Part shown: positions 7,339-57,697 of the stretch, one piece after another
How the letters are laid out: every line of letters begins with the position of its first letter
Position numbering within the stretch: the stretch's first letter is position 1
Origin: Dehalococcoidia bacterium
GTDB lineage: Bacteria > Chloroflexota > Dehalococcoidia > UBA6926
Direction of reading: 5' to 3'
Assembly: GCA_965205915.1 (NCBI GenBank)
Contig: OZ242191.1
Coordinates: 21,410-85,409, forward strand
Length of the DNA: 64,000 nucleotides
The notes under the pieces: generated by a model
Database searches by the model: none
The model's input: only the letters and a program-made list of their open reading frames with translations
What the model was told of the DNA's origin: nothing
Program-made: the position numbers and the translations under genes

Positions 7339-10166
7339 CCACTGCGGCCGGACCCGTCCCGTTCCCGCAGACGTTCGTTTCGCTCGACCTTGAAACGACA
7401 GGGCTGAATTCGGATAGCGACCGCATCATCGAGGTTGGCGCGGTAAAGGTGGTGGGCGGGGAATTTGTCGACAGCTTTCAGCGCCTTATCAACCCCGGGC
7501 ACACGCTGCCTGATTTCGTGTCTGTCCTAACTGGCATTACTGACGCCGATCTTGTAGGCGCGCCGCCGTTTGGGGACGTGGCGGAGGAGCTTGCGGCGTT
7601 TATCGGCGACCTGCCGATGGTGGGACAGAATTATCGATTTGACCTTGGGTTCCTGAACGCGGGTGGGGTGAGTCCGACCGGTCCGGTGTACGACACGCTG
7701 GATATGTCGCGCATCTTGCGACCTTCGGCGGCGAATCACGGTCTTGGGTGGCTCATCGAGGAGTTGGACATCCGTAACGACAGTCCGCACCGGGCGCTAG
7801 CGGACGCGGAGGCGACGGCGCACGTTTTCCAGGAGTTCTGGAACAGGATTCACGGTCTCGATCCGGTGACGATTGCGATGATTCGTTCGCTGGTTGACCG
7901 AGCGCCGGGCGAGTGGAGCGCGGGGGCGGTGTTTGACCTGGCTGCCCGAGAGCGTGGAATTGCCGCCGGTGGGCCCGAGGGCGTGATCCGGCGGCTGACG
8001 GAGCGGCTTGGACGTCCGAGTGTGGAGTCCGAAACGCGGCAGCGTCGGTTGCCGGCGACGGAGGCCGGTGGGGCGGCCATCGCGGCTGTATTTGAAAAGG
8101 ACGGCGGACTTGGGCGGGCGCTCGATGAATCATATGAGCCTCGAACTCAGCAGTTAGAGATGGCGCAGGCAGTGCTGGAGATACAGGAGGCCGGGGGAAC
8201 GCTGCTGCTGGAAGCGCCGCCGGGGACGGGAAAGTCGCTGGGTTATCTGATTCCGGCCATGTGGCGGGCGGAGGCGGGCGAGGAGCAGGTCGTCGTTGCG
8301 ACATCGACGCGTGGCTTGCAGGAGCAGTTGGCGGCCAAGGATGTTCCCATCGCGCTACAGGCGCTTGGGCTGTCTTCGGACGATTTCCGGGTGGCCCTGC
8401 TCAAGGGCAGGGGGAACTATCTGTGCATCTCGCGTCTGCTGTCGCGACTGGGCAATCTTGAAGTGACGGCCGGCGATGCCGCGTTCCTGGCTCGGCTGCT
8501 GGTGTGGCTGGAATCAACGGAGAGCGGTGATCTCGGTGAACTGCCGATAGGCGAACAGGAGGCGGCGCGGTGGTCGAGCCTGTCCGCCGGTTCAGAGGAG
8601 GGGCATAGAAACTGCGCGTATGAGCGTGAGGGGCACTGTTTCATTGGGCGGGCTCGCCGCGCCGCGCAGGCCGCGCACCTTGTGATTACGAATCATGCGC
8701 TGCTGCTCGCGGATTCGTCGGCGGGTAGCGGCGTGCTTAAGGACGTCCCGCACATCATCCTTGATGAGGCGCACAACCTTGAGCGAGAGGCGACGGATCA
8801 TTACACCCGCAGCATTTCCCATACCGAGGTGAACGAGCTGCTCGCGGCATTGGGTTCAGACTCCGATGATGGACGGCCACGGATTGTGGTGACGGCGCTG
8901 GCGGGTTCCGAGCAGGGCGGTGGTTCTCGCAGGGCCGAGATTGAGGCCGCGGGGGCAGAGGTTGCGGCGGCGGCTCGAAACGCGGCGACTAGCGCCGGAC
9001 AGTTCTTCAGGGCAGTTGGCGTGATGACTGCGGGGGCGCGCTCCGACCGGGGAGGCGAGGCCGTTCGGCTCACGCAACAGGCGCGGGAGACGGAAGAATG
9101 TCGTGAGGTGGCGCGCGCGTGGGAGGACCTGGACGGGACTCTTAGCGCCGTGAACAACCTGGTAGATTCGCGGCTGCGCTCGGCGTTGCAGACGCAGCAG
9201 GGGCGACAGGGGCCATCGACGGATGTGGACGATGCAATGCGCCGTATATCTGACGTAAGGGAACGTCTGCAACGCGTGATGAGTGGGACGAATCCTGACG
9301 AGGACATCACATGGCTGGAGTTGCCGCGAGATCAGCGGCGTGGTGTCTCTTTGAACTGGGCGCCGATGACAGTCGCGCCGCATCTTGCGAGCGGACCATT
9401 TAACGAACGCAAGTCGATTGTGCTGGCGAGCGCGACGCTGACGACGGACGGCTCGTTCGGGTTCATCAGCGAACGACTGGGACTTGAGGAGCCATCCGAA
9501 AAGCGGCTGAGTCTCGGGCTGGCCCCGGAGGATGCGGCGGCGGCGATGGTTCCCATGGACGTGCCTGATCCGAATAGCAATGCCTACGGCAGGGCCGTTC
9601 AGCAGGCCATCGTTGATGTTGCGACGGCGACGGGGGGTGGGGTGCTGGCGCTGTTCACGTCGCACGCGTCGCTCCGCGAGACGTACACGAAGATTAGCTC
9701 CGTGCTGCGTGAGCGGGATATCAGCGTGCTGGCGCAGGGCATCGACGGGCCGCCGGATCGGTTGGCGGAGATTGCGCGGCTTCGCAAGGGAATCGTCATT
9801 CTTGGGGCGGCGGCGTTCTGGGAGGGTGTGGATCTACCGGGCGACGCGCTACGGGCGCTGATCGTCGCGCGGCTGCCGTTTGATGTGCCATTCGATCCCA
9901 TCATCGCGGCGCGGGGCGAGACGTATGAGAACTCGTTCAGCGAGTTCCAGATTCCGCGCTCGCTGTTGAGATTCAAGCAGGGCGTGGGGCGACTGATTCG
10001 GAGCACAAAAGATCAGGGCGTGATTGTTGTGCTCGACTCGCGTGTGCTCAACAGGGGGTATGGCGCGGCGTTCATCGACGCGCTGCCGACGCCGACGGTA
10101 CTGACGCCGCCGCTGGACCGGTTGGGCGATCAGGTTCGGGAGTGGTTCGGCGGCGATGGCGAGTGA
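7335..10166 (+). CDS. dinG: DinG-family ATP-dependent helicase with an N-terminal DnaQ-like 3'-5' exonuclease domain
   Basis: FVSLDLETTGLNSDSDRIIEVGAV...HRALADAEAT (exonuclease motifs), then EAPPGTGKSL...DEAHNLE (helicase motifs I/II). 943 aa. Confidence 0.85.
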   Translation: MTTAAGPVPFPQTFVSLDLETTGLNSDSDRIIEVGAVKVVGGEFVDSFQRLINPGHTLPDFVSVLTGITDADLVGAPPFGDVAEELAAFIGDLPMVGQNYRFDLGFLNAGGVSPTGPVYDTLDMSRILRPSAANHGLGWLIEELDIRNDSPHRALADAEATAHVFQEFWNRIHGLDPVTIAMIRSLVDRAPGEWSAGAVFDLAARERGIAAGGPEGVIRRLTERLGRPSVESETRQRRLPATEAGGAAIAAVFEKDGGLGRALDESYEPRTQQLEMAQAVLEIQEAGGTLLLEAPPGTGKSLGYLIPAMWRAEAGEEQVVVATSTRGLQEQLAAKDVPIALQALGLSSDDFRVALLKGRGNYLCISRLLSRLGNLEVTAGDAAFLARLLVWLESTESGDLGELPIGEQEAARWSSLSAGSEEGHRNCAYEREGHCFIGRARRAAQAAHLVITNHALLLADSSAGSGVLKDVPHIILDEAHNLEREATDHYTRSISHTEVNELLAALGSDSDDGRPRIVVTALAGSEQGGGSRRAEIEAAGAEVAAAARNAATSAGQFFRAVGVMTAGARSDRGGEAVRLTQQARETEECREVARAWEDLDGTLSAVNNLVDSRLRSALQTQQGRQGPSTDVDDAMRRISDVRERLQRVMSGTNPDEDITWLELPRDQRRGVSLNWAPMTVAPHLASGPFNERKSIVLASATLTTDGSFGFISERLGLEEPSEKRLSLGLAPEDAAAAMVPMDVPDPNSNAYGRAVQQAIVDVATATGGGVLALFTSHASLRETYTKISSVLRERDISVLAQGIDGPPDRLAEIARLRKGIVILGAAAFWEGVDLPGDALRALIVARLPFDVPFDPIIAARGETYENSFSEFQIPRSLLRFKQGVGRLIRSTKDQGVIVVLDSRVLNRGYGAAFIDALPTPTVLTPPLDRLGDQVREWFGGDGE

Positions 10167-47272: not shown

Positions 47273-49336
47273 ATGTTGGCAATGGTACGCCGAAGACGAC
47301 GCCTCTACTCCGTTGCTGGAGTCCTCATAGTCCTGGCCGTGGCGTTGGCAGCCGCCGTCCTCTATGCCGGATCAATGAGTCTGAACGGGAATTCGCCACT
47401 GCCGGGCGCGTCTGGAGGCTTGCAGCGAGAGTCTGCTTGGTGGATCCCTCCCCCCGACTTCCCCCCGACTTCGCTGGAGGAGAGGATAGTGCGGAGTGAC
47501 GCCATAGCAAGGGTGACTCTGGTATCCGCGGCCCAGGTGGTGGAGGAAATCTCCGGATGGCCCAACCAAGGAGACACTTCGTACGCAAACGCGCTGGAGT
47601 TCAGGTTCAAGGTACTGGAGCACCTGAAGGGGAGCGGTGGAAGCGAGCTTGTGGCGATAGCAGTTGACTGGTATGAGCATTTTGCAACTAGGGCGGAGGC
47701 GGGCGCAGGCGCAGAAGACTTCCTGGGAGAGAGGGACACAAGGTGGGACGCCCGGGAGGCGATAGTGTTCCTGCATGATGACGAACCGTATCTGCCAAGC
47801 ACCGGGCAAGCGGACAGGTACCTCCTCTGGTTTCTGCGCAACACCTATGGGCAGGAAATCTACACTATAGCCAGCCCCTCCAAGATGTGGCTGCCGGCGG
47901 CGTCTGACAGTCTACCAGTACCAGCTGACCAGGCGAGGGCATCCAGCGGAGGGACGCAGCGCTTCCTTCTTGAGGAGCCGCCTTCGGGGGGCGGGGCAGT
48001 GCTTTCAGGGATGGCGCGGGCCCTGTCGGGTAATCAGGGCGCGTCGCAGGCCGCCACCATCAACCTGGCGGACATGAAGACAAAGATCGCAGAGCTGGAC
48101 GCGGAGGTCGGGGAGGGGGACGGCTCGGAGGAGTACCGGGAGTGCGTCCGGTTCAAGTACGAGTGGGAGAACTGGGTAAGCCTAACCAAGGAAGAACGCG
48201 CCGCCGAGGGCGAAGGCGGCTACGACTACGATCGGTACGACCATGCACTGGCGTCCGGGCAGGCGGCGGGCAGCTTGTTCCACACCTACGAGCTCTGGCA
48301 CATCTGGGTGATTGACTATGGCGAGACCATCCCCAGCAAGTATGCGAGCATGTTCCAGCTGGACGGGCAGGACGAGGGTCTATTCGTCGTGGAGTACCCC
48401 GGCGAGGTGTCCCCGGCACGTCCACTTCCGGCGGGGGAGTACAGGTTCTACTTCATCCGCATGGAGAAGGGGCTCGTCGTCTGCGACGGACTGCCGGAGG
48501 AGGAGCGGACGAGCAAGGAGCACTTCGTGACCGTCACCGCTCCCACCGGCACGCTCCACGAATCCTTCTTTGATCCGGTGGACCTGACAGGTGGAGGCGC
48601 TGGCGCGACGGGATCCTCCGGGGCCATCGACCCGGATGAGTTCACCGTCGGCAGCGACGACTATGAGATTGAGAGCCTCGTGTGGCGGAGCGGGTCCGTC
48701 GTCCTGACGCTGGATGATTATGTGTCGCTGAGCGGGCAGACGCTGGATTTTATTGAGTTGGATGGTTCTATCGATACCTCGTTGGATGTCTCCGACGCTT
48801 CGGTCAATCAGACGGCCGCCACTTGGACGTGGAGCGTCACCGGCGCGCCATGGGAAGACGGCGATCAGTTGATGCTGCGCATCCGCGACACGAGCACGGG
48901 GCCCACAGTCGTGACACCAACGCCAACACCCACACCCACGCCGACGCCGGGACCAACCGTGACGCCGGGACCAACCGCGACGCCCACACCCACGCCGACG
49001 CCCACGCCGACTCCAACTCCCACTGCCACTCCGAATCCCGCCAGAGGGAACCCCTCAGTCGGCGATGTGACCGGAACCGGTGTCCGCGTGAGTTGGGACA
49101 GGGTGAGGCCGTCCGGCACGTACCTGCAGGACGTCCGCGGCAACTACCGGCTCGCAGACACAACAGACTAGTCGTTCGGCGCGTATATCGACGTCAGTAC
49201 GTGGGGCACTCGGAGGCAGGAAGCGACGGTGTCCGGCCTCACGTGCGAGACGAATTACGACTTCCAGATCGAAGCGGAGTACTCGGACAGCTGGCACGAC
49301 TACGCCAGCGTCAGCGCAACCACCGGAGGATGCTGA
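47273..49336 (+). pseudogene. Paralog B of the secreted-protein family (signal anchor + N-module + shared C-module + PT linker + FN3-like tail) with an in-frame TAG at 49169-49171 inside the FN3-like tail
   Basis: AGGAGG 7 nt before ATG. MLAMVRRRRRLYSVAGVLIVLAVALAAAVLYAGS. ...[78 protein letters not shown] continues in frame to TGA at 49334. The track ORF ends at 49171. Confidence 0.65.
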
Positions 49337-51949: not shown

Positions 51950-52108
51950 GTCCCCACACCCCCACACACGATTGTACGCGGTTCACGCCTACATCCGCAC
52001 GCAACAATCTACGACGGGGTGGCGGGCCGGATTAGGAGGTGGGGGGGATTACATGCACTTACGTGGGCCCTCTGTGTCCGCGCTGCGGCTCTGTTTGTAC
52101 GCGAACGC

Positions 52109-52136
52109 TTGACGGGCTAAAGCATAAGGTTAGACT
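52109..52136 (+). promoter_or_regulatory. Sigma70-like promoter (TTGACG - 16 nt - TAGACT) driving paralog C; duplicated at 59370-59397
   Basis: cttgacgggctaaagcataaggttagactgggcgg. GGAGGA lies 10 nt before the ATG at 52184. An identical hexamer pair plus leader recurs upstream of 59445. Confidence 0.45.
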
Positions 52137-52183
52137 GGGCGGCAGCGGCGTGGGTACGGACTACCCGGAGGATCCGAGGTTCG

Positions 52184-53809
52184 ATGAGCAGAGTAAGAGC
52201 GCTGATCGGTTTTCGGCGTTTCCGCATTGGTCTTGGCGTTCTGGGCGCCGTGGGTATTGCCAGCGCCGGTGTTCTCATGTGGGCCTTTTCCTCCGGGTTT
52301 GCGGGCGATTTCGAGCGGAGTGTGCTTTCTGATTTGAGTCCATTTGGCGAGCGTCGGCCCCTGTCGATAAGCCGTCCGTACGATGACGCGCCCGGTTGGA
52401 CGGCGTCTCTTGAGCAGAAGGTTGTCGGATCAGATGTCATAGCTCGCGCGCGATTCGTGTCGGCGACGCGTTCGAGTATAAATATCGTTACTACGTACGG
52501 AGGAATACTTAACGAACCGGTTTCCTACCACATTGCGGCCATGGAGCTGCGCTTTGAGATACTCGAACATCTGAAGGGATCAGGGCCAAGCGAAGTTGTT
52601 GCAATTGTGTGGGAGGATTTTGCGGAGCGCTTCCAAACGGCCCAAGGAGCGCGCCTGTTCGGCACGAATATTGTGGCTGCCAGGAATGCGACCTGGGACT
52701 CTCGGGAGGCTATTGTTTTCCTCACAGACATACCTAGCAACGTGCCTTCCCTCAGGTCGCGGGCGGATTACTACACGTTAGGAAGGCATACATCCTACGC
52801 CATCGATACTCTGGGCGGCAGACGTTGGCTTCCCGATGCCGATGCAGGGTCAACGACAGGCTCACAGGCGCGCAGTTCCAGAGCGGACGCTCAGAGATTC
52901 CTGCTCGAAGCTCCTGCCCAAAGCGATTCGTCTGTCACCAGGAGCAGCAGCTCGCAGGCCACCGGCACGACGCCGACAATCACATTGGGGACATTGAAGC
53001 AGAAGATCACTGAAATGCAGGCTGAGGTAGACGAGGGGGATGGCACAGAAGCATATCGAAATTGCGTGTACCTGAAGTATGCCCGCGCTTCGTATGTCGC
53101 ATATGTGAAGGAAAACAACGACGGGCAATTCCATCAAGGCCAAGATTTCGCGGAGATTGCATCCGGCATGGCGTCCGGCACAGAAGTTGCCGAAGATTAT
53201 GAAGCATCGTCAACCTTGTCCGCGTTCGGGCCCATTCAGCCGCCGGAATTGCCCACCGGCGTCTTTCAGCTCTTCGGCAGAGATGTTGGGCTGTTTGACT
53301 ATCGCTATCCCGGGTTCGTCTATCTGGAGCGTCCGCTACCGGATGGAGAATATAGGGTGTTCTGGGGCGGCGTACTGCCGGAATACTTGCCGTGCGATGC
53401 ACTTCCACAGGAAGAAAAGGAACGCCATGAACTCGTAGTCACCGTCACCGCCCCCGCTGGCACGCTCCATGAGGCTTTCTTTGATCCGGTAGACCTGAGT
53501 GGCTCACGAGTCGGGGCGACGGGTTCATCCGGCGTCATTGATCCTGATGAATTCACTGTTGCTGGTGACGATTATGAGATCGAGAGCCTTGTCTGGCGGA
53601 GCAATTCCGTTGTCCTGACGCTGGATGACCATGTCTCGCTGTCCGGGCAGACGCTGGACTTCATTGAGTTGGACGGCTCCATTGATACATCGCTGGATAT
53701 CGCCGATGCGACGGTTAATCAGACGGCCGCCACATGGACGTGGAGCGTTGATTCTCAGTCCTGGGAGGATGGGGATCTGTTGATGGTGCGGATTCGGGAG
53801 ACGGGCTAG
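52184..53809 (+). CDS. Paralog C of the secreted-protein family (signal anchor + N-module + shared C-module); the PT-linker tail is cut off by a stop
   Basis: MSRVRALIGFRRFRIGLGVLGAVGIASAGVLMWAFSSGFAGDFERSVLSDL...VTVTAPAGTLHEAFFDPVDLSGSRVGATGSSGVIDPDEFTV...WEDGDLLMVRIRETG*. A PT-linker remnant (IVLATATPISSATPTPTPAPR) continues in frame at 53810-53884. Confidence 0.7.
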   Translation: MSRVRALIGFRRFRIGLGVLGAVGIASAGVLMWAFSSGFAGDFERSVLSDLSPFGERRPLSISRPYDDAPGWTASLEQKVVGSDVIARARFVSATRSSINIVTTYGGILNEPVSYHIAAMELRFEILEHLKGSGPSEVVAIVWEDFAERFQTAQGARLFGTNIVAARNATWDSREAIVFLTDIPSNVPSLRSRADYYTLGRHTSYAIDTLGGRRWLPDADAGSTTGSQARSSRADAQRFLLEAPAQSDSSVTRSSSSQATGTTPTITLGTLKQKITEMQAEVDEGDGTEAYRNCVYLKYARASYVAYVKENNDGQFHQGQDFAEIASGMASGTEVAEDYEASSTLSAFGPIQPPELPTGVFQLFGRDVGLFDYRYPGFVYLERPLPDGEYRVFWGGVLPEYLPCDALPQEEKERHELVVTVTAPAGTLHEAFFDPVDLSGSRVGATGSSGVIDPDEFTVAGDDYEIESLVWRSNSVVLTLDDHVSLSGQTLDFIELDGSIDTSLDIADATVNQTAATWTWSVDSQSWEDGDLLMVRIRETG

Positions 53810-53926
53810 GATCCGATCATCGTGCTTGCGACCGCCACACCGATTTCGTCCGCGACACCAACGCCAACACCTGCCCCACGCTGATTGAGCGGCGATGGCT
53901 AAGTAATGGTGAGGGTGGGTATTGAA

Positions 53927-55747
53927 ATGCTGAGAGGAAGAATTGCACAGGCTAAACGGGCTTGGCTGGTCTTGACCCCAGTGGCCCTATGTGCCGTGGG
54001 CATGACGTGGCTGCTAATCTGGGCCTTTTCCTCCGGTTTTGCGGCCGACTTCGAGCGGAGTGTGCTTTCAGACTTCAATCCATTCGATGACGACCCGGCC
54101 ATTATGGGGGCTAGTGAGCCCGGAGGCACGGCGTCGTTGGAGGAAATCATCGTTGGATCGGACGTTATCGCCCGCGCGCGCTTCGTATCAGCAAGTCGTG
54201 CAAGTCTGAATATCGTAATGACACTTCCTAACGCAGACCGGACCGTTGTTTCCTATTACATACCCGCTATGGAATACCGATTTAGGATGCTCGAATATTT
54301 GAAGGGGTCTGGTCCTAACGAGGTAGTAGCTATCGTATATGAGCGCAGGGGGGAGACCTTCCAAACGGCGGAGGGCGCCAGGCTGTTGGGAACCAATCTG
54401 GTGGCAGAGCGAGACACAACTTGGGATTCTCGAGAGGCGGTTGTGTTCTTGGAAGACTTATCAGCCATTCCTGGCTTTGTTGCCCCTGCGGACCGCTACT
54501 CGTTGGGATCAGAGATTGCCCACGCGATTGATAGCCCGCATGCGAAGAGTTGGCTGCCTACTGCCGATGCGCCGTCGCAAACCGAGACCAGAACGACGGG
54601 GACGAATGCGGATAGTAAGAAATACCTCTTGGACGCCCCGACCGGGTTTTCGTCGTCTGCGACAACACGCAGCCTGCCGACGACGATTACAAATGCGCCA
54701 ACAATCGCACTTGGAAAACTGAAGCAGAAGATAACAGATTTGCAGGCGGAGGTTGACGCGGGTGATGGCTCAGAAGAGTACAGAGAATGTGTGTATTGGA
54801 AATACGCCCTTGCTAACCAGGTCGAGCATGTCAAAGAAGAGCGGGGAGGTGACTACTATCAATATCGTGACGAAGCGCACATCGAGTCGGGCCTGCCGTC
54901 CGCTGCCGAGGTTGCCAAGGACAGGCAATACGAAATACTTTTGGATAGCTTCGGACCAGACGGCGGAAGCCAAAACTACAACCTCTATGGTGACGATGCA
55001 AACCTGTTTGTTTACACATATCCAGGTCTGGTAACGCTGGCTCGACCATTGCCTGAGTCAGAATTCAGTGTATTTCTCAATGTCACGTCATTGCGTTACA
55101 TGCCTTGCGACGCTGAACCTCAAGAGGAAAAGGAACGCGCAGAACTTGTCGTCACCGTCACCGCCCCCACCGGCACGCTGCATGAGGCTTTCTTTGATCC
55201 GGTAGACCTGAGTGGCTCACGAGTCGGGGCGACGGGTTCATCCGGGGTGATTGATCTTGACGAGTTCACTGTCGGGGGGGATGACGTCGAGATTGATGGC
55301 CTGGAGTGGCGGAGCGGGTCCGTGGTGCTGGAGTTGGATGATTATGTGTCGCTTTCCGGGCAAGCGCTGGACTTCATTGAGCTGGACGGCTCCATTGACA
55401 CTTCGCTGGACATCGCGGACGCGACGGTGAACCAGACGGCCGCAACATGGACATGGAGCGTCACCGGCGCGCCGTGGGAGGATGGCGATCTGCTGATGCT
55501 GCGCATCCGCGACACGAGTACGGGGCCCACTGTCGTGACACCCACGCCGACGCCGGTGCCAACCGTGACGCCGGTACCCACGCCAACGCCGGTGCCCACG
55601 GTGGAGCCGACTGTGGAGCCTACACCGGATCCCGACAGAGGGAACCCCTCAGTCGGCGATGTGACCGGAACCGGTTCAGCGCAGCCTGTACAAGTACTTG
55701 CCCGCCGTAATAATGCACGAATTCGGGCACACACTAGGCCTACATGA
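53927..55747 (+). CDS. Paralog D of the secreted-protein family; its C-terminal tail is fused out of frame to a metallopeptidase gene remnant
   Basis: MLRGRIAQAKRAWLVLTPVALCAVGMTWLLIWAFSSGFAADFERSVLSDF...VTVTAPTGTLHEAFFDPVDLSGSRVGATGSSGVIDLDEFTV...[21 protein letters not shown]...[12 protein letters not shown], then an unrelated SAQPVQVLARRNNARIRAHTRPT*. Confidence 0.7.
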   Translation: MLRGRIAQAKRAWLVLTPVALCAVGMTWLLIWAFSSGFAADFERSVLSDFNPFDDDPAIMGASEPGGTASLEEIIVGSDVIARARFVSASRASLNIVMTLPNADRTVVSYYIPAMEYRFRMLEYLKGSGPNEVVAIVYERRGETFQTAEGARLLGTNLVAERDTTWDSREAVVFLEDLSAIPGFVAPADRYSLGSEIAHAIDSPHAKSWLPTADAPSQTETRTTGTNADSKKYLLDAPTGFSSSATTRSLPTTITNAPTIALGKLKQKITDLQAEVDAGDGSEEYRECVYWKYALANQVEHVKEERGGDYYQYRDEAHIESGLPSAAEVAKDRQYEILLDSFGPDGGSQNYNLYGDDANLFVYTYPGLVTLARPLPESEFSVFLNVTSLRYMPCDAEPQEEKERAELVVTVTAPTGTLHEAFFDPVDLSGSRVGATGSSGVIDLDEFTVGGDDVEIDGLEWRSGSVVLELDDYVSLSGQALDFIELDGSIDTSLDIADATVNQTAATWTWSVTGAPWEDGDLLMLRIRDTSTGPTVVTPTPTPVPTVTPVPTPTPVPTVEPTVEPTPDPDRGNPSVGDVTGTGSAQPVQVLARRNNARIRAHTRPT

Positions 55748-55865
55748 TTTCTATAGCGATCCTTCGATGAATCATTTGTCCGCCGTGATGAATAAGAGCA
55801 CAACCATAGAGGACGAGGATCTAGCCCAACTGCGGGCGATTTACCTCCTTCATGACGCGCATTAG
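55713..55865 (+). pseudogene. Fossil 3' fragment of a snapalysin-like metallopeptidase gene (MHEFGHTLGLHDFYSDPSMNHLSAVMNKSTTIEDEDLAQLRAIYLLHDAH*)
   Basis: HEFGHTLGLHD = HEXXHXXGXXD catalytic motif, in a different frame from paralog D. The reading frame is closed by TGA about 45 nt upstream. Its stop overlaps the ATG of paralog E, exactly as the 45099 gene stop overlaps paralog B. Confidence 0.5.
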
Positions 55866-57447
55866 GAAGCGAGGCTCGACGATGATCCGCGCGATGCTAC
55901 TCATTCTGATGGTGATCCTCATGGCGGGTTGCGGCTTATTCTCGGCCGCCGCGCCGGCCGAGACCCCGGTTCCGCCTGAACAGGCCCAGACAATTGTCAT
56001 GTCACCTGCCCCAGAGCCACAGCGCGGTGAATTCTCGCTCGAGGAGAGGATCCTCAATGCCACCCAAATTGTGAGGGCGACGATGACTTCGTTCTCGTCG
56101 GAGGTTGTTTCAGACGCGGAAGGAAGGTACCGTGCCGTGCTGAAGTTCAGCTTCAGCGCCAGCGAATATCTGAAAGGCTCCGGCCCCACCAGCGTTGTCG
56201 CAGTGGCGGTTGACGGTCGATCCTACGACACCCGCGCGGAGGCTGAAGCCAGGAAGACGGTCATCCTAAATGAACGGGACGATCAATGGGACGATAGGGA
56301 GGCGATCATCTTCCTGTTTAGTGGCTTCACCGGATTGGGGTCTGCGCTGGACGCACAGTTTCAGCGCGCCGATCACTTCCTCTTGGCAATTGGGAACCGA
56401 TATTCCGGCGATGACCGGTACAACCTACACAGTACCGAGAGCAAAACCTGGCTGCCCGCCGCCACGAGTGGGAGTTCTGCCTCGGGCGCGAGATCCGTTA
56501 GCAAAGACCAGGAGTACCTGTTGGATGTTCCGTCTCAGGAAGGAGCCAGAGGGGTGGGGGCAAGTTCTACCACGTCGACGATCGCCCTCAGCACTCTGAA
56601 GACACGCATTAGAGAGCTGACGACCGAGTTGAACGGCGGCAGCTCGGAGGCGTACAAGCAGTGCGTCAGGGAGAAGTACGAATTCGAACGGATGGGTCGC
56701 TACTGGCAGGATCTGAAAGGCAGGAAGGGGTATGACAACCGGCCCACTGCGAGCGAATTGATGTCCGGCCAGCCTGCCAACACTGAGTTATATGCGTGGC
56801 TGGCAGAGGGCTGGTATCCCGACCAGACGGGGAGAGGATGGCTTGAAGGAAGAGACGCCGCCTTGTTTGCAGTTGTGCTGGGCGAGTTAATTGCGGTCGA
56901 CGTCGATGGCGATGGGAGGATTACTTCCGGCATTGATGGGATTGAATACACGAAAACACTCGCGACGGCCCGCCCTCTCGCAGCTGGTGAATACAAAACT
57001 GTCCGCAAGGATGTGTGGGCTGTATTTCTGCCTTGTAACTACGTCCTCAGCAACGACTGGACGATCACCGTCACCGCCCCCGCTGGCACCCTCCACGAAT
57101 CGTTCTTTGATCCGGTGGTGTTGAGTGGGGGAGGCGTCGGGGCGACGGGATCGTCCGGGGTGATTGATCCTGACGAGTTCACTGTCGGGGGGGATGACGT
57201 CGAGATTGATGGCCTGGAGTGGCGGAGCGGCTCCGTCGTGCTGGAGTTGGATGATTATGTGTCGCTTTCGGGGCAAGCGCTGGACTTCATTGAGTTGGAC
57301 GGTTCCATTGACACGACTCTGGATGTCTCCGACGCTACGGTCAATCAGACGGCCGCGACGTGGACGTGGAGTGTTGATTCTCAGCCCTGGGTGGATGGCG
57401 ATTTGTTGATGGTGCGGATTCGGGAGACGGATACGGCGTCGGAGTAG
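55852..57447 (+). CDS. Paralog E of the secreted-protein family (lipoprotein)
   Basis: Lipobox LMVILMAGC. N-module ...LEERILNATQIVRATMTSFS...LKGSGPTSVVAVAVDG...ERDDQWDDREAIIFLF. Shared C-module ITVTAPAGTLHESFFDPVVLSGGGVGATGSSGVIDPDEFTVGGDDVEIDGLEWRSGSVVLELDD...RIRETDTASE*. Confidence 0.7.
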   Translation: MTRIRKRGSTMIRAMLLILMVILMAGCGLFSAAAPAETPVPPEQAQTIVMSPAPEPQRGEFSLEERILNATQIVRATMTSFSSEVVSDAEGRYRAVLKFSFSASEYLKGSGPTSVVAVAVDGRSYDTRAEAEARKTVILNERDDQWDDREAIIFLFSGFTGLGSALDAQFQRADHFLLAIGNRYSGDDRYNLHSTESKTWLPAATSGSSASGARSVSKDQEYLLDVPSQEGARGVGASSTTSTIALSTLKTRIRELTTELNGGSSEAYKQCVREKYEFERMGRYWQDLKGRKGYDNRPTASELMSGQPANTELYAWLAEGWYPDQTGRGWLEGRDAALFAVVLGELIAVDVDGDGRITSGIDGIEYTKTLATARPLAAGEYKTVRKDVWAVFLPCNYVLSNDWTITVTAPAGTLHESFFDPVVLSGGGVGATGSSGVIDPDEFTVGGDDVEIDGLEWRSGSVVLELDDYVSLSGQALDFIELDGSIDTTLDVSDATVNQTAATWTWSVDSQPWVDGDLLMVRIRETDTASE

Positions 57448-57545: not shown

Positions 57546-57697
57546 CGTCCTCCAACCGTTTCACTTTGTGATTGTACGTGGTTCAGGGGGAGGTTGGTGA
57601 GCAACCACGTTGTGAGTATCGTTGTGTCTGTAAGTCATTTACCCTAACAGTCATGGCTGTGACGAAGAATGCACGGGGATTTGAGGGGGGTTGGCGG

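Follow-up and report, generated by a model that had tools for sequence, protein, structure and literature searches.

A stretch of 64,000 nucleotides from a Dehalococcoidia bacterium (assembly GCA_965205915.1, contig OZ242191.1, positions 21,410 to 85,409), hereafter referred to as the window, carries an array of related lipoprotein genes (paralogs A to F), one of which, open reading frame (ORF) D, runs out of frame into the tail of a gene for a matrixin-like metalloprotease of the metzincin type. This junction is most likely an inherited rearrangement scar produced by an illegitimate deletion that reached from a lipoprotein gene of the B type into the gene behind it. In such a non-homologous deletion, the C-terminal fn3 domain of the lipoprotein gene would have been cut after its codon 12 and connected to the next gene, 62 codons before its stop, and this next gene would have encoded a secreted multidomain matrixin-like metzincin with a signal peptide, Pro/Thr linkers, fn3 domains, and a C-terminal catalytic domain of ~190 aa. 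The material lost would have comprised the rest of the fn3 domain (~250 nt), the intergenic spacer, and ~90% of the peptidase gene, amounting to ~2 kb if the lost gene resembled its intact relative in the genome L004 (described below), or to 1.3-4 kb over the range of gene lengths observed. The join is +1 out of frame: D closes with 23 junk residues, and what is left of the protease (zinc helix, Met-turn, C-terminal helix) is not translated as part of any protein. The scar would later have been spread or reshuffled among strains by homologous recombination within a conserved C-terminal domain of ~370 nt (the C-domain).

The left-hand edge of the scar can be placed by comparison with paralog B (Table 1). 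The DNA of the two genes matches over 45 bases with 1 mismatch, up to D 55675 (B 49081), and diverges fully from the next base, 55676, beyond which B reads VRVSWDRV…. When it is read through an in-frame TAG, this extension of B matches Pfam fn3 (PF00041; E 8.8e-6, 26.3 bits against a cut-off of 25), in agreement with the original prediction that B continues with an fn3-like domain at the point where D breaks off. Because the B extension is a complete fn3 domain, the 12 residues shared by D and B represent the first strand of that domain, and they are all that D retains of it; the sequence GDVTGTG belongs to the left-hand side and natively precedes the fn3 match. The pre-junction residues of D are likewise carried by the proteins P0020 and P0053, which then proceed through (V/L)R(V/A)SWDRV… into a full fn3 domain. 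The alignment thus brings a minor correction, namely that identity with B ends at 55675 and the breakpoint lies between 55675 and 55676. The scar had been described as precise, which can be judged at its left edge only, where identity with B stops abruptly. Across the junction, GC content falls from ~0.70 on the left to ~0.48 on the right and the reading frame is offset by +1, with codons of the D frame running from 55676 and those of the peptidase frame from 55677.

To the right of the junction, the +1 frame is open from 55665 (after a TGA at 55662-55664), is sequence-specific from 55677, and closes with a TAG at 55863-55865. From the TGA to the TAG it reads PEPVQRSLYKYLPAVIMHEFGHTLGLHDFYSDPSMNHLSAVMNKSTTIEDEDLAQLRAIYLLHDAH, and its translation, as given from its open stretch to the TAG, is QRSLYKYLPAVIMHEFGHTLGLHDFYSDPSMNHLSAVMNKSTTIEDEDLAQLRAIYLLHDAH. 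The portion from 55677 to 55865 opens with QRSLYKYLPAVIMHEFGHTLGLHD, closes with LRAIYLLHDAH and the stop, and can be summarized as QRSLYKYLPAVIM-HEFGHTLGLHD-…-AVM-…-LRAIYLLHDAH. It contains the extended zinc-binding motif HExxHxxGxx(H/D), of which the H, E, H, and G are invariant across an alignment of nine tails, a conserved Met ~23 residues past this motif, and then a C-terminal helix. The stub matches positions 108-158/159 of the Pfam Peptidase_M10 model (PF00413; E 2e-5), and its 25.0 bits exceed the gathering threshold of 24 by a small margin. A profile combining the stub with eight relatives aligns to the final ~48 residues of the catalytic domains of MMP-16, MMP-8, and MMP-1 in the PDB, spanning the zinc helix, the Met-turn, and the C-terminal helix, with …DLAQLRAIY… aligning to MMP-16 and MMP-8 as far as the domain end. 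Searches with tblastn retrieved homologous C-termini, the best at E 6e-26 and 74% identity, with weaker matches down to 53%. The Pfam, tblastn, and PDB profile matches are significant alignments to the HExxHxxGxxD peptidase family, and the view that the out-of-frame peptide is a genuine peptidase C-terminus, into which D runs in the wrong frame, is upheld by these matches together with the reading frames and the D/B alignment.

Only 13 residues precede the HExxH motif in the stub, leaving ~110-130 residues of the catalytic domain missing, and no complete catalytic domain, with the N-terminal five-stranded sheet and helix A that occupy ~110 residues ahead of the zinc helix, is present in an open translated frame at the stub, where the upstream DNA consists of the linker and fn3 stub of D in another frame. 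The missing residues of a metzincin form the beta-sheet and the upper rim of the active-site cleft. Because this part of the fold is absent, the stub cannot be an enzyme and is a gene remnant.

Table 1. Positions of the junction, its parts, and the related genes and domains in the window
Feature	Coordinates	Strand	Description
ORF D	53906..55747	+	613 aa; family lipoprotein domain, Pro/Thr linker, 12 fn3 codons, 23 out-of-frame codons, TGA
D family lipoprotein domain	to ~55540	+	
D Pro/Thr linker	~55541-55639	+	
fn3 stub, 12 residues	55640..55675	+	final stretch common to D, paralog B (49046-49081), and intact family+fn3 proteins
Junction	55675..55676	+	left parent up to 55675, right parent from 55676
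D frame-shifted tail, SAQPVQVLARRNNARIRAHTRPT and stop	55676..55747	+	peptidase DNA in the wrong frame; 23 residues and TGA at 55745-55747
Metzincin stub	55677..55865	+	last 62 codons and TAG of a matrixin-like catalytic domain
Zinc-binding motif HEFGHTLGLHD (HExxHxxGxxD)	55716..55748	+	
Met of presumed Met-turn (SAVMN)	55788..55790	+	invariant in nine-tail alignment
Gene E	55882..57447	+	family lipoprotein, signal MIRAMLLILMVILMAGC; start 17 nt past stub stop, behind GGAAGCGAGG
Paralog A	45093..47258	+	in-frame fusion of the family domain with a complete metzincin catalytic domain (~46653-47258); fusion point ~46645-46660
Paralog B	47255..49336	+	left-parent reference: family domain, Pro/Thr linker, complete fn3 domain
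Second stub	59445..59636	+	63-codon chimeric ORF abutting gene F: first 9-10 codons of C and A-type peptidase tail
C-terminal domain (~370 nt), six paralogs	46248-46645, 48527-48895, 53438-53806, 55151-55523, 57065-57436, 60899-61265		

The closest relative of the stub is the C-terminus of an intact open frame of 673 codons in the Dehalococcoidia metagenome-assembled genome (MAG) L004 (GCA_034422835.1), with 74% identity. This frame encodes a hydrophobic signal, Pro/Thr linkers, three fn3-like domains, and a catalytic domain of ~190 residues, which scores 17.6 bits against M10 and thus falls under the cut-off of 24. Downstream of the frame, after a gap of 14 nt, comes the ortholog of E, which shares 70% identity with E over 400 residues. 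Such arrangements were compared at 25 loci, comprising 20 further loci of Chloroflexota/Dehalococcoidia obtained by scanning species-representative genomes with a profile of the tail and five obtained earlier. Long open frames (422-1300 codons) ending in this tail are present at 18 of the 25 loci and short ones (85-272 codons) at seven, and at every one of the 25 a family gene of the A-F type lies directly after the metzincin stop, ~0-100 nt away and on the same strand. The converse does not hold, since family genes without a metzincin exist (C in the window and one at L060). Because the L004 relative precedes an ortholog of E and the pairing holds at all 25 loci, the stub is the remnant of the protease that was the conserved upstream partner of E. 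Gene E is identical to P0107, and GGAAGCGAGG ahead of it is a Shine-Dalgarno-like stretch.

Stubs at the matching position were inspected in several other Dehalococcoidia genomes. That of L007 (5922-6338) consists of 415 nt squeezed between an adh_short gene and the family gene, that of L043 (~8000-8060) retains the last ~20 codons only, that of L002/L003 (5000-6000) adjoins a DDE-transposase-like fragment, and those of L005 and L006 are interrupted by stops; the two other short frames are those of L035 (156 codons) and L013 (245 codons), the latter of which may be a short gene in full. Gene callers present the stub of the window as a 50-aa ‘MHEFGH…’ protein and report just the last 106 aa of the 673-codon gene of L004. 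A stand-alone ‘mini-metzincin’ gene had been suggested by the first protein search, which gave only proteins of 50-116 aa, and was ruled out as the 106-aa call in L004 sits inside the 673-codon frame, 18 of the 25 relatives are long, and the short ones are cut at differing points. Short database ‘proteins’ of this metzincin family (P0001, P0142-P0144, P0002) are unreliable.

The junction also occurs in L001, a 4.9-kb contig from a different ENA assembly whose identity to the window is ~99% between 55603 and the end of E and 100% over the junction and the stub; the presence of an identical junction in this independent sequence rules out an artefact private to the window. Upstream, L001 differs in that a C-like gene with another C-domain and linker is found and the sequence equivalent to ~53800-55097 is absent. 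The 50-aa ‘MHEFGH…’ ORF has three more cluster members (P0142-P0144; 1-4 substitutions, at least 92% identity) on contigs that carry E alleles (P0131, P0140, and P0135, respectively). E alleles are also present on eight other contigs (P0132-P0141), and P0129 is an ortholog of E with 83% identity. Several observations weigh against a deletion behind D as the full account. The left parent need not be D, given that the junction in L001 follows a C-like gene, and the closest D orthologs, those of L062 (90%) and L061 (84%), are 538-550 aa long and end just after the C-domain, without a Pro/Thr linker or fn3 domain. The contigs of P0142-P0144 are not counted as further copies of the junction because gene callers under-called the intact gene of L004, and indel errors could account for some of the truncations seen in other MAGs assembled from long reads. 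A JGI metagenome scan with E returned one locus of 37% identity lacking an upstream metzincin, and exact look-ups of D, A, E, and P0107 returned nothing; with no pre-deletion allele among these results, the size of the loss and any microhomology at the join are reconstructed rather than observed.

Comparison of the strains further indicates how the region rearranges. L062 passes from the C-domain of D straight into post-E sequence and lacks 55524-57430. L061, on a syntenic contig of 2.5 Mb with 85-91% identity, holds a smaller number of cassettes to either side of the CoA-transferase gene and carries a Pro/Thr linker and fn3 domain after an E-like gene. All of the strain-level structural breakpoints seen (L001, L062, L061) fall in the C-domain, which is common to all paralogs at 77-84% DNA identity, and E alleles that are 0.7-3.7% apart in the N-domain are ~20% apart in the C-domain. 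Because the breakpoints all lie in this shared domain, in which the E alleles are also so divergent, the module formed by the linker, fn3 stub, peptidase stub, and E is gained, lost, and re-attached by homologous recombination, and the C-domain behaves as a hotspot of recombination or gene conversion, beyond being a plain conserved domain.

In light of this mobility, it is possible, if somewhat doubtful, that the scar is real but was formed behind another B-type paralog, with the module having subsequently moved behind D by recombination or gene conversion in the C-domain. The early ends of the D orthologs in L061 and L062, the loss of the module in L062, its place behind a C-like gene in L001 with near-identity beginning only at ~55603, the C-domain difference between E alleles, and the linker and fn3 domain behind an E-like gene in L061 all fit such a history; deletion in situ followed by later losses through C-domain crossovers, however, fits the same data, and no donor locus is known. 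This alternative changes the place where the junction was formed but not its nature. The original prediction, that a deletion removed the end of D and most of a downstream peptidase gene, is thus sustained as regards the deletion, by the anatomy of the junction, the L004 relative, and the distribution of HExxH considered next, and is left uncertain as regards its formation behind D itself.

Paralog A, in which the family domain is fused to a complete catalytic domain, raises the alternative of a one-gene ancestor, a family-fn3-metzincin fusion of this kind from which an internal deletion of ~650 nt with a frameshift took away two thirds of the catalytic domain along with the fn3 domain. This is unlikely, as A is the sole such fusion. 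The HExxH motif is absent from ~30 family genes at 21 other loci, where the extensions are fn3, leucine-rich repeat-like, or cadherin-like, and from the 120 best homologs of D, and its absence from these ~150 family proteins outside the window favors a deletion between two genes over one internal to a single gene. Family proteins with an fn3 domain also end after that domain, as illustrated by B, whose frame closes with …GC and a stop, and by the B-type protein of L032, which ends likewise, and the intact relative in L004 has its own signal peptide and fn3 array. The destroyed peptidase was thus very probably a separate gene. The order of genes in L005, namely metzincin, family gene with fn3, decayed metzincin, and family gene, is that expected of the ancestral arrangement. 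A simple insertion of the stub and E into the fn3 domain of D was ruled out, there being no fn3 remainder downstream of E. At the scar, the family domain of D is complete, and E has a start codon and a ribosome-binding site of its own; D probably remains functional, and the two genes are now probably transcribed together.

The stub itself is probably without function. Its retention for some purpose, whether as a promoter or leader of E, for translational coupling, as a small protein, or through programmed +1 frameshifting from D, might be suggested by the persistence of peptidase 3' stubs right before family genes in several genomes, with stop-free tails, by a sigma-70-like match at 55687-55714, and by a ratio of non-synonymous to synonymous polymorphism (pN/pS) of 0.38 between the L005 stub and its intact paralog. 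Against this improbable alternative, stubs range in length from 20 to ~150 codons, fragments of 50-62 residues lack the beta-sheet half of the metzincin fold, and the evidence for a promoter consists of one weak match to the consensus, a hint at most, in a host whose promoters are uncharacterised. Moreover, the second stub of the window, adjoining gene F, evolves neutrally with a pN/pS of ~1.2, compared to 0.35 for the gene bodies of B and F, and in three strain pairs amino-acid changes are about twice as frequent in the D/E stub as in the N-domain of E (8/150 vs 32/1200), a difference that is not significant. Constraint on the stubs at the nucleotide level, such as by a promoter, was suggested by the identity of the A tail and the F stub over their last 110 nt, and was ruled out by the finding that the first ~1 kb of B and F is also identical, which indicates a recent duplication.

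An artefact of assembly or sequencing, in the form of a chimeric join at a paralog repeat or an indel error mimicking a frameshift, is barely credible even though the join lies just past a near-identical repeat shared with B, the related MAGs were assembled from long reads and contain indel errors, and the coverage of L001 and L062 is only 2x, for the junction recurs in L001 behind a different upstream structure, a misjoin at a repeat would swap intact downstream contexts rather than yield a gene that lacks the first two thirds of its catalytic domain, and ~130 residues of that domain would still be missing if the two frames were joined.

Other members of the array display related events. The architecture of A is absent from ~150 other family proteins, and A is probably the in-frame counterpart of the D event, having arisen from a deletion that fused a family gene with the partner peptidase of B. 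The ORF of B is cut by a TAG at 49169-49171, beyond which the frame stays open to a …GGC end and stop at 49336; the homologs P0020 and P0053 and a 628-aa protein of L061 have Trp at this position, and the TAG looks like a TGG-to-TAG nonsense mutation (or base error) truncating B. A second scar (59364-59636) joins the upstream region and first 9-10 codons of C (like 52103-52217), at ~59472-59478 and with 1-2 nt of microhomology, to a peptidase tail like 47094-47258. F and its tail are a 90.5%-identical duplicate of the A tail and B, and the second stub arose with the recent duplication of that segment. At C, the frame following the stop (53807-53905) reads DPIIVLATATPISSATPTPTPAPR and a stop and looks like a decayed Pro/Thr linker, and C may have lost a C-terminal extension through its stop codon; the L061 protein at the position of C is 546 aa long and ~39% identical to C. 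A repeat protein of 1063 aa (39393-42584, minus strand) has a C-terminal HEMTH motif, and a 546-aa ORF between E and F (57572-59212, plus strand), for which no Pfam match was obtained, has W/D-rich repeats that are similar by eye; both are noted as further secreted, protease-related genes of the island.

The family lipoproteins give no Pfam match, and their N-domain has no sequence match in Pfam or the PDB, including to TIMP (PF00965) and NTR (PF01759). An AlphaFold model of E built with 69 homologs has a mean predicted local distance difference test score (pLDDT) of 78.7, and the N-domain modelled separately (~56014-56526; pLDDT 77) is predicted to adopt an oligonucleotide/oligosaccharide-binding (OB) fold. 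When the N-domain model was compared with the PDB using Foldseek, the five best matches were TIMP-2 (four entries) and the NTR module of PCOLCE, all of them weak (probability 0.97-1.0, E 3e-3 to 3e-2, template modelling (TM) score 0.34-0.43), followed by generic OB folds. Alignment to the TIMP-2 N-domain with hhalign covers 19 columns only, pairing EE.I..SDVIARV with QQAFCNADVVIRAK at a probability of 2.7%. The TIMP cysteines, which comprise an N-terminal Cys-x-Cys with a free amino group and the conserved cysteines of the disulfides, are absent, no Cys being conserved in the N-domain alignment, and the only N-terminal Cys is that of the lipobox, from which the N-domain is separated by ~30-45 disordered residues. 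The lipoproteins are not members of the TIMP family; a TIMP-like interaction with the adjacent matrixin-like protease is a weak but reasonable lead.

Tentatively, the array may belong to an undescribed cassette system of soil Dehalococcoidia, in which secreted fn3-bearing metzincins are each paired with a surface lipoprotein having an N-terminal TIMP-like OB fold and the shared C-domain serves as a recombination handle. If so, the lipoprotein of each cassette would be a cognate inhibitor or protease-released effector, as in the Listeria Mtz/Tim pair, and the handle would shuffle, duplicate, and delete cassettes between strains, giving rise to orphan lipoproteins such as E, fusions such as A, and protease stubs. 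Should the TIMP-like partnership prove true, Listeria Mtz/Tim, the only published precedent from bacteria, would gain a counterpart in a distant phylum. In annotation, D is best marked as altered at its 3' end and 55677-55865 as a fragment of a pseudogene, and the 50-aa ‘MHEFGH…’ ORFs of public protein sets are to be treated as spurious calls. The scar has also served as a marker, pointing to a metzincin-to-lipoprotein gene pair that is strictly conserved in Chloroflexota and to evidence that cassettes turn over fast among near-identical strains.

A literature search combining Dehalococcoidia and metzincin found no papers, and the surrounding array of protease and lipoprotein genes is conserved and little studied. 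Among known systems, the matrixin-type metzincins (MEROPS M10/PF00413, with snapalysin M7 for the HExxHxxGxxD variant) resemble the stub in its zinc-binding motif, Met, and C-terminal helix; the stub differs in being the last third of a domain in an untranslated frame, and its intact relatives in being weak M10 matches that are large, fn3-bearing secreted proteins of Dehalococcoidia. In Listeria monocytogenes, the secreted metzincin Mtz is immediately followed by the TIMP-like lipoprotein Tim (PMC8235301). The arrangement described here is similar in that a metzincin gene is followed within a few bases by a lipoprotein gene and the two are kept as a pair, and in the TIMP-2 and NTR matches of the N-domain model. 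It is dissimilar in that the sequences are unrelated, the lipoproteins, ~520 aa long and arranged in tandem arrays, have extra beta-sandwich domains, and the match in fold is weak. The scar itself is a case of ordinary gene decay, a deletion scar with a pseudogene fragment. As in other bacterial pseudogene fragments and deletion-fusion scars of tandem paralog arrays, there is a non-homologous join, a frameshift, the loss of most of one gene, a neutral-looking remnant, and presence or absence among strains. Nothing essential sets it apart from these, and what is peculiar is that stubs of the same type recur beside the same partner gene.

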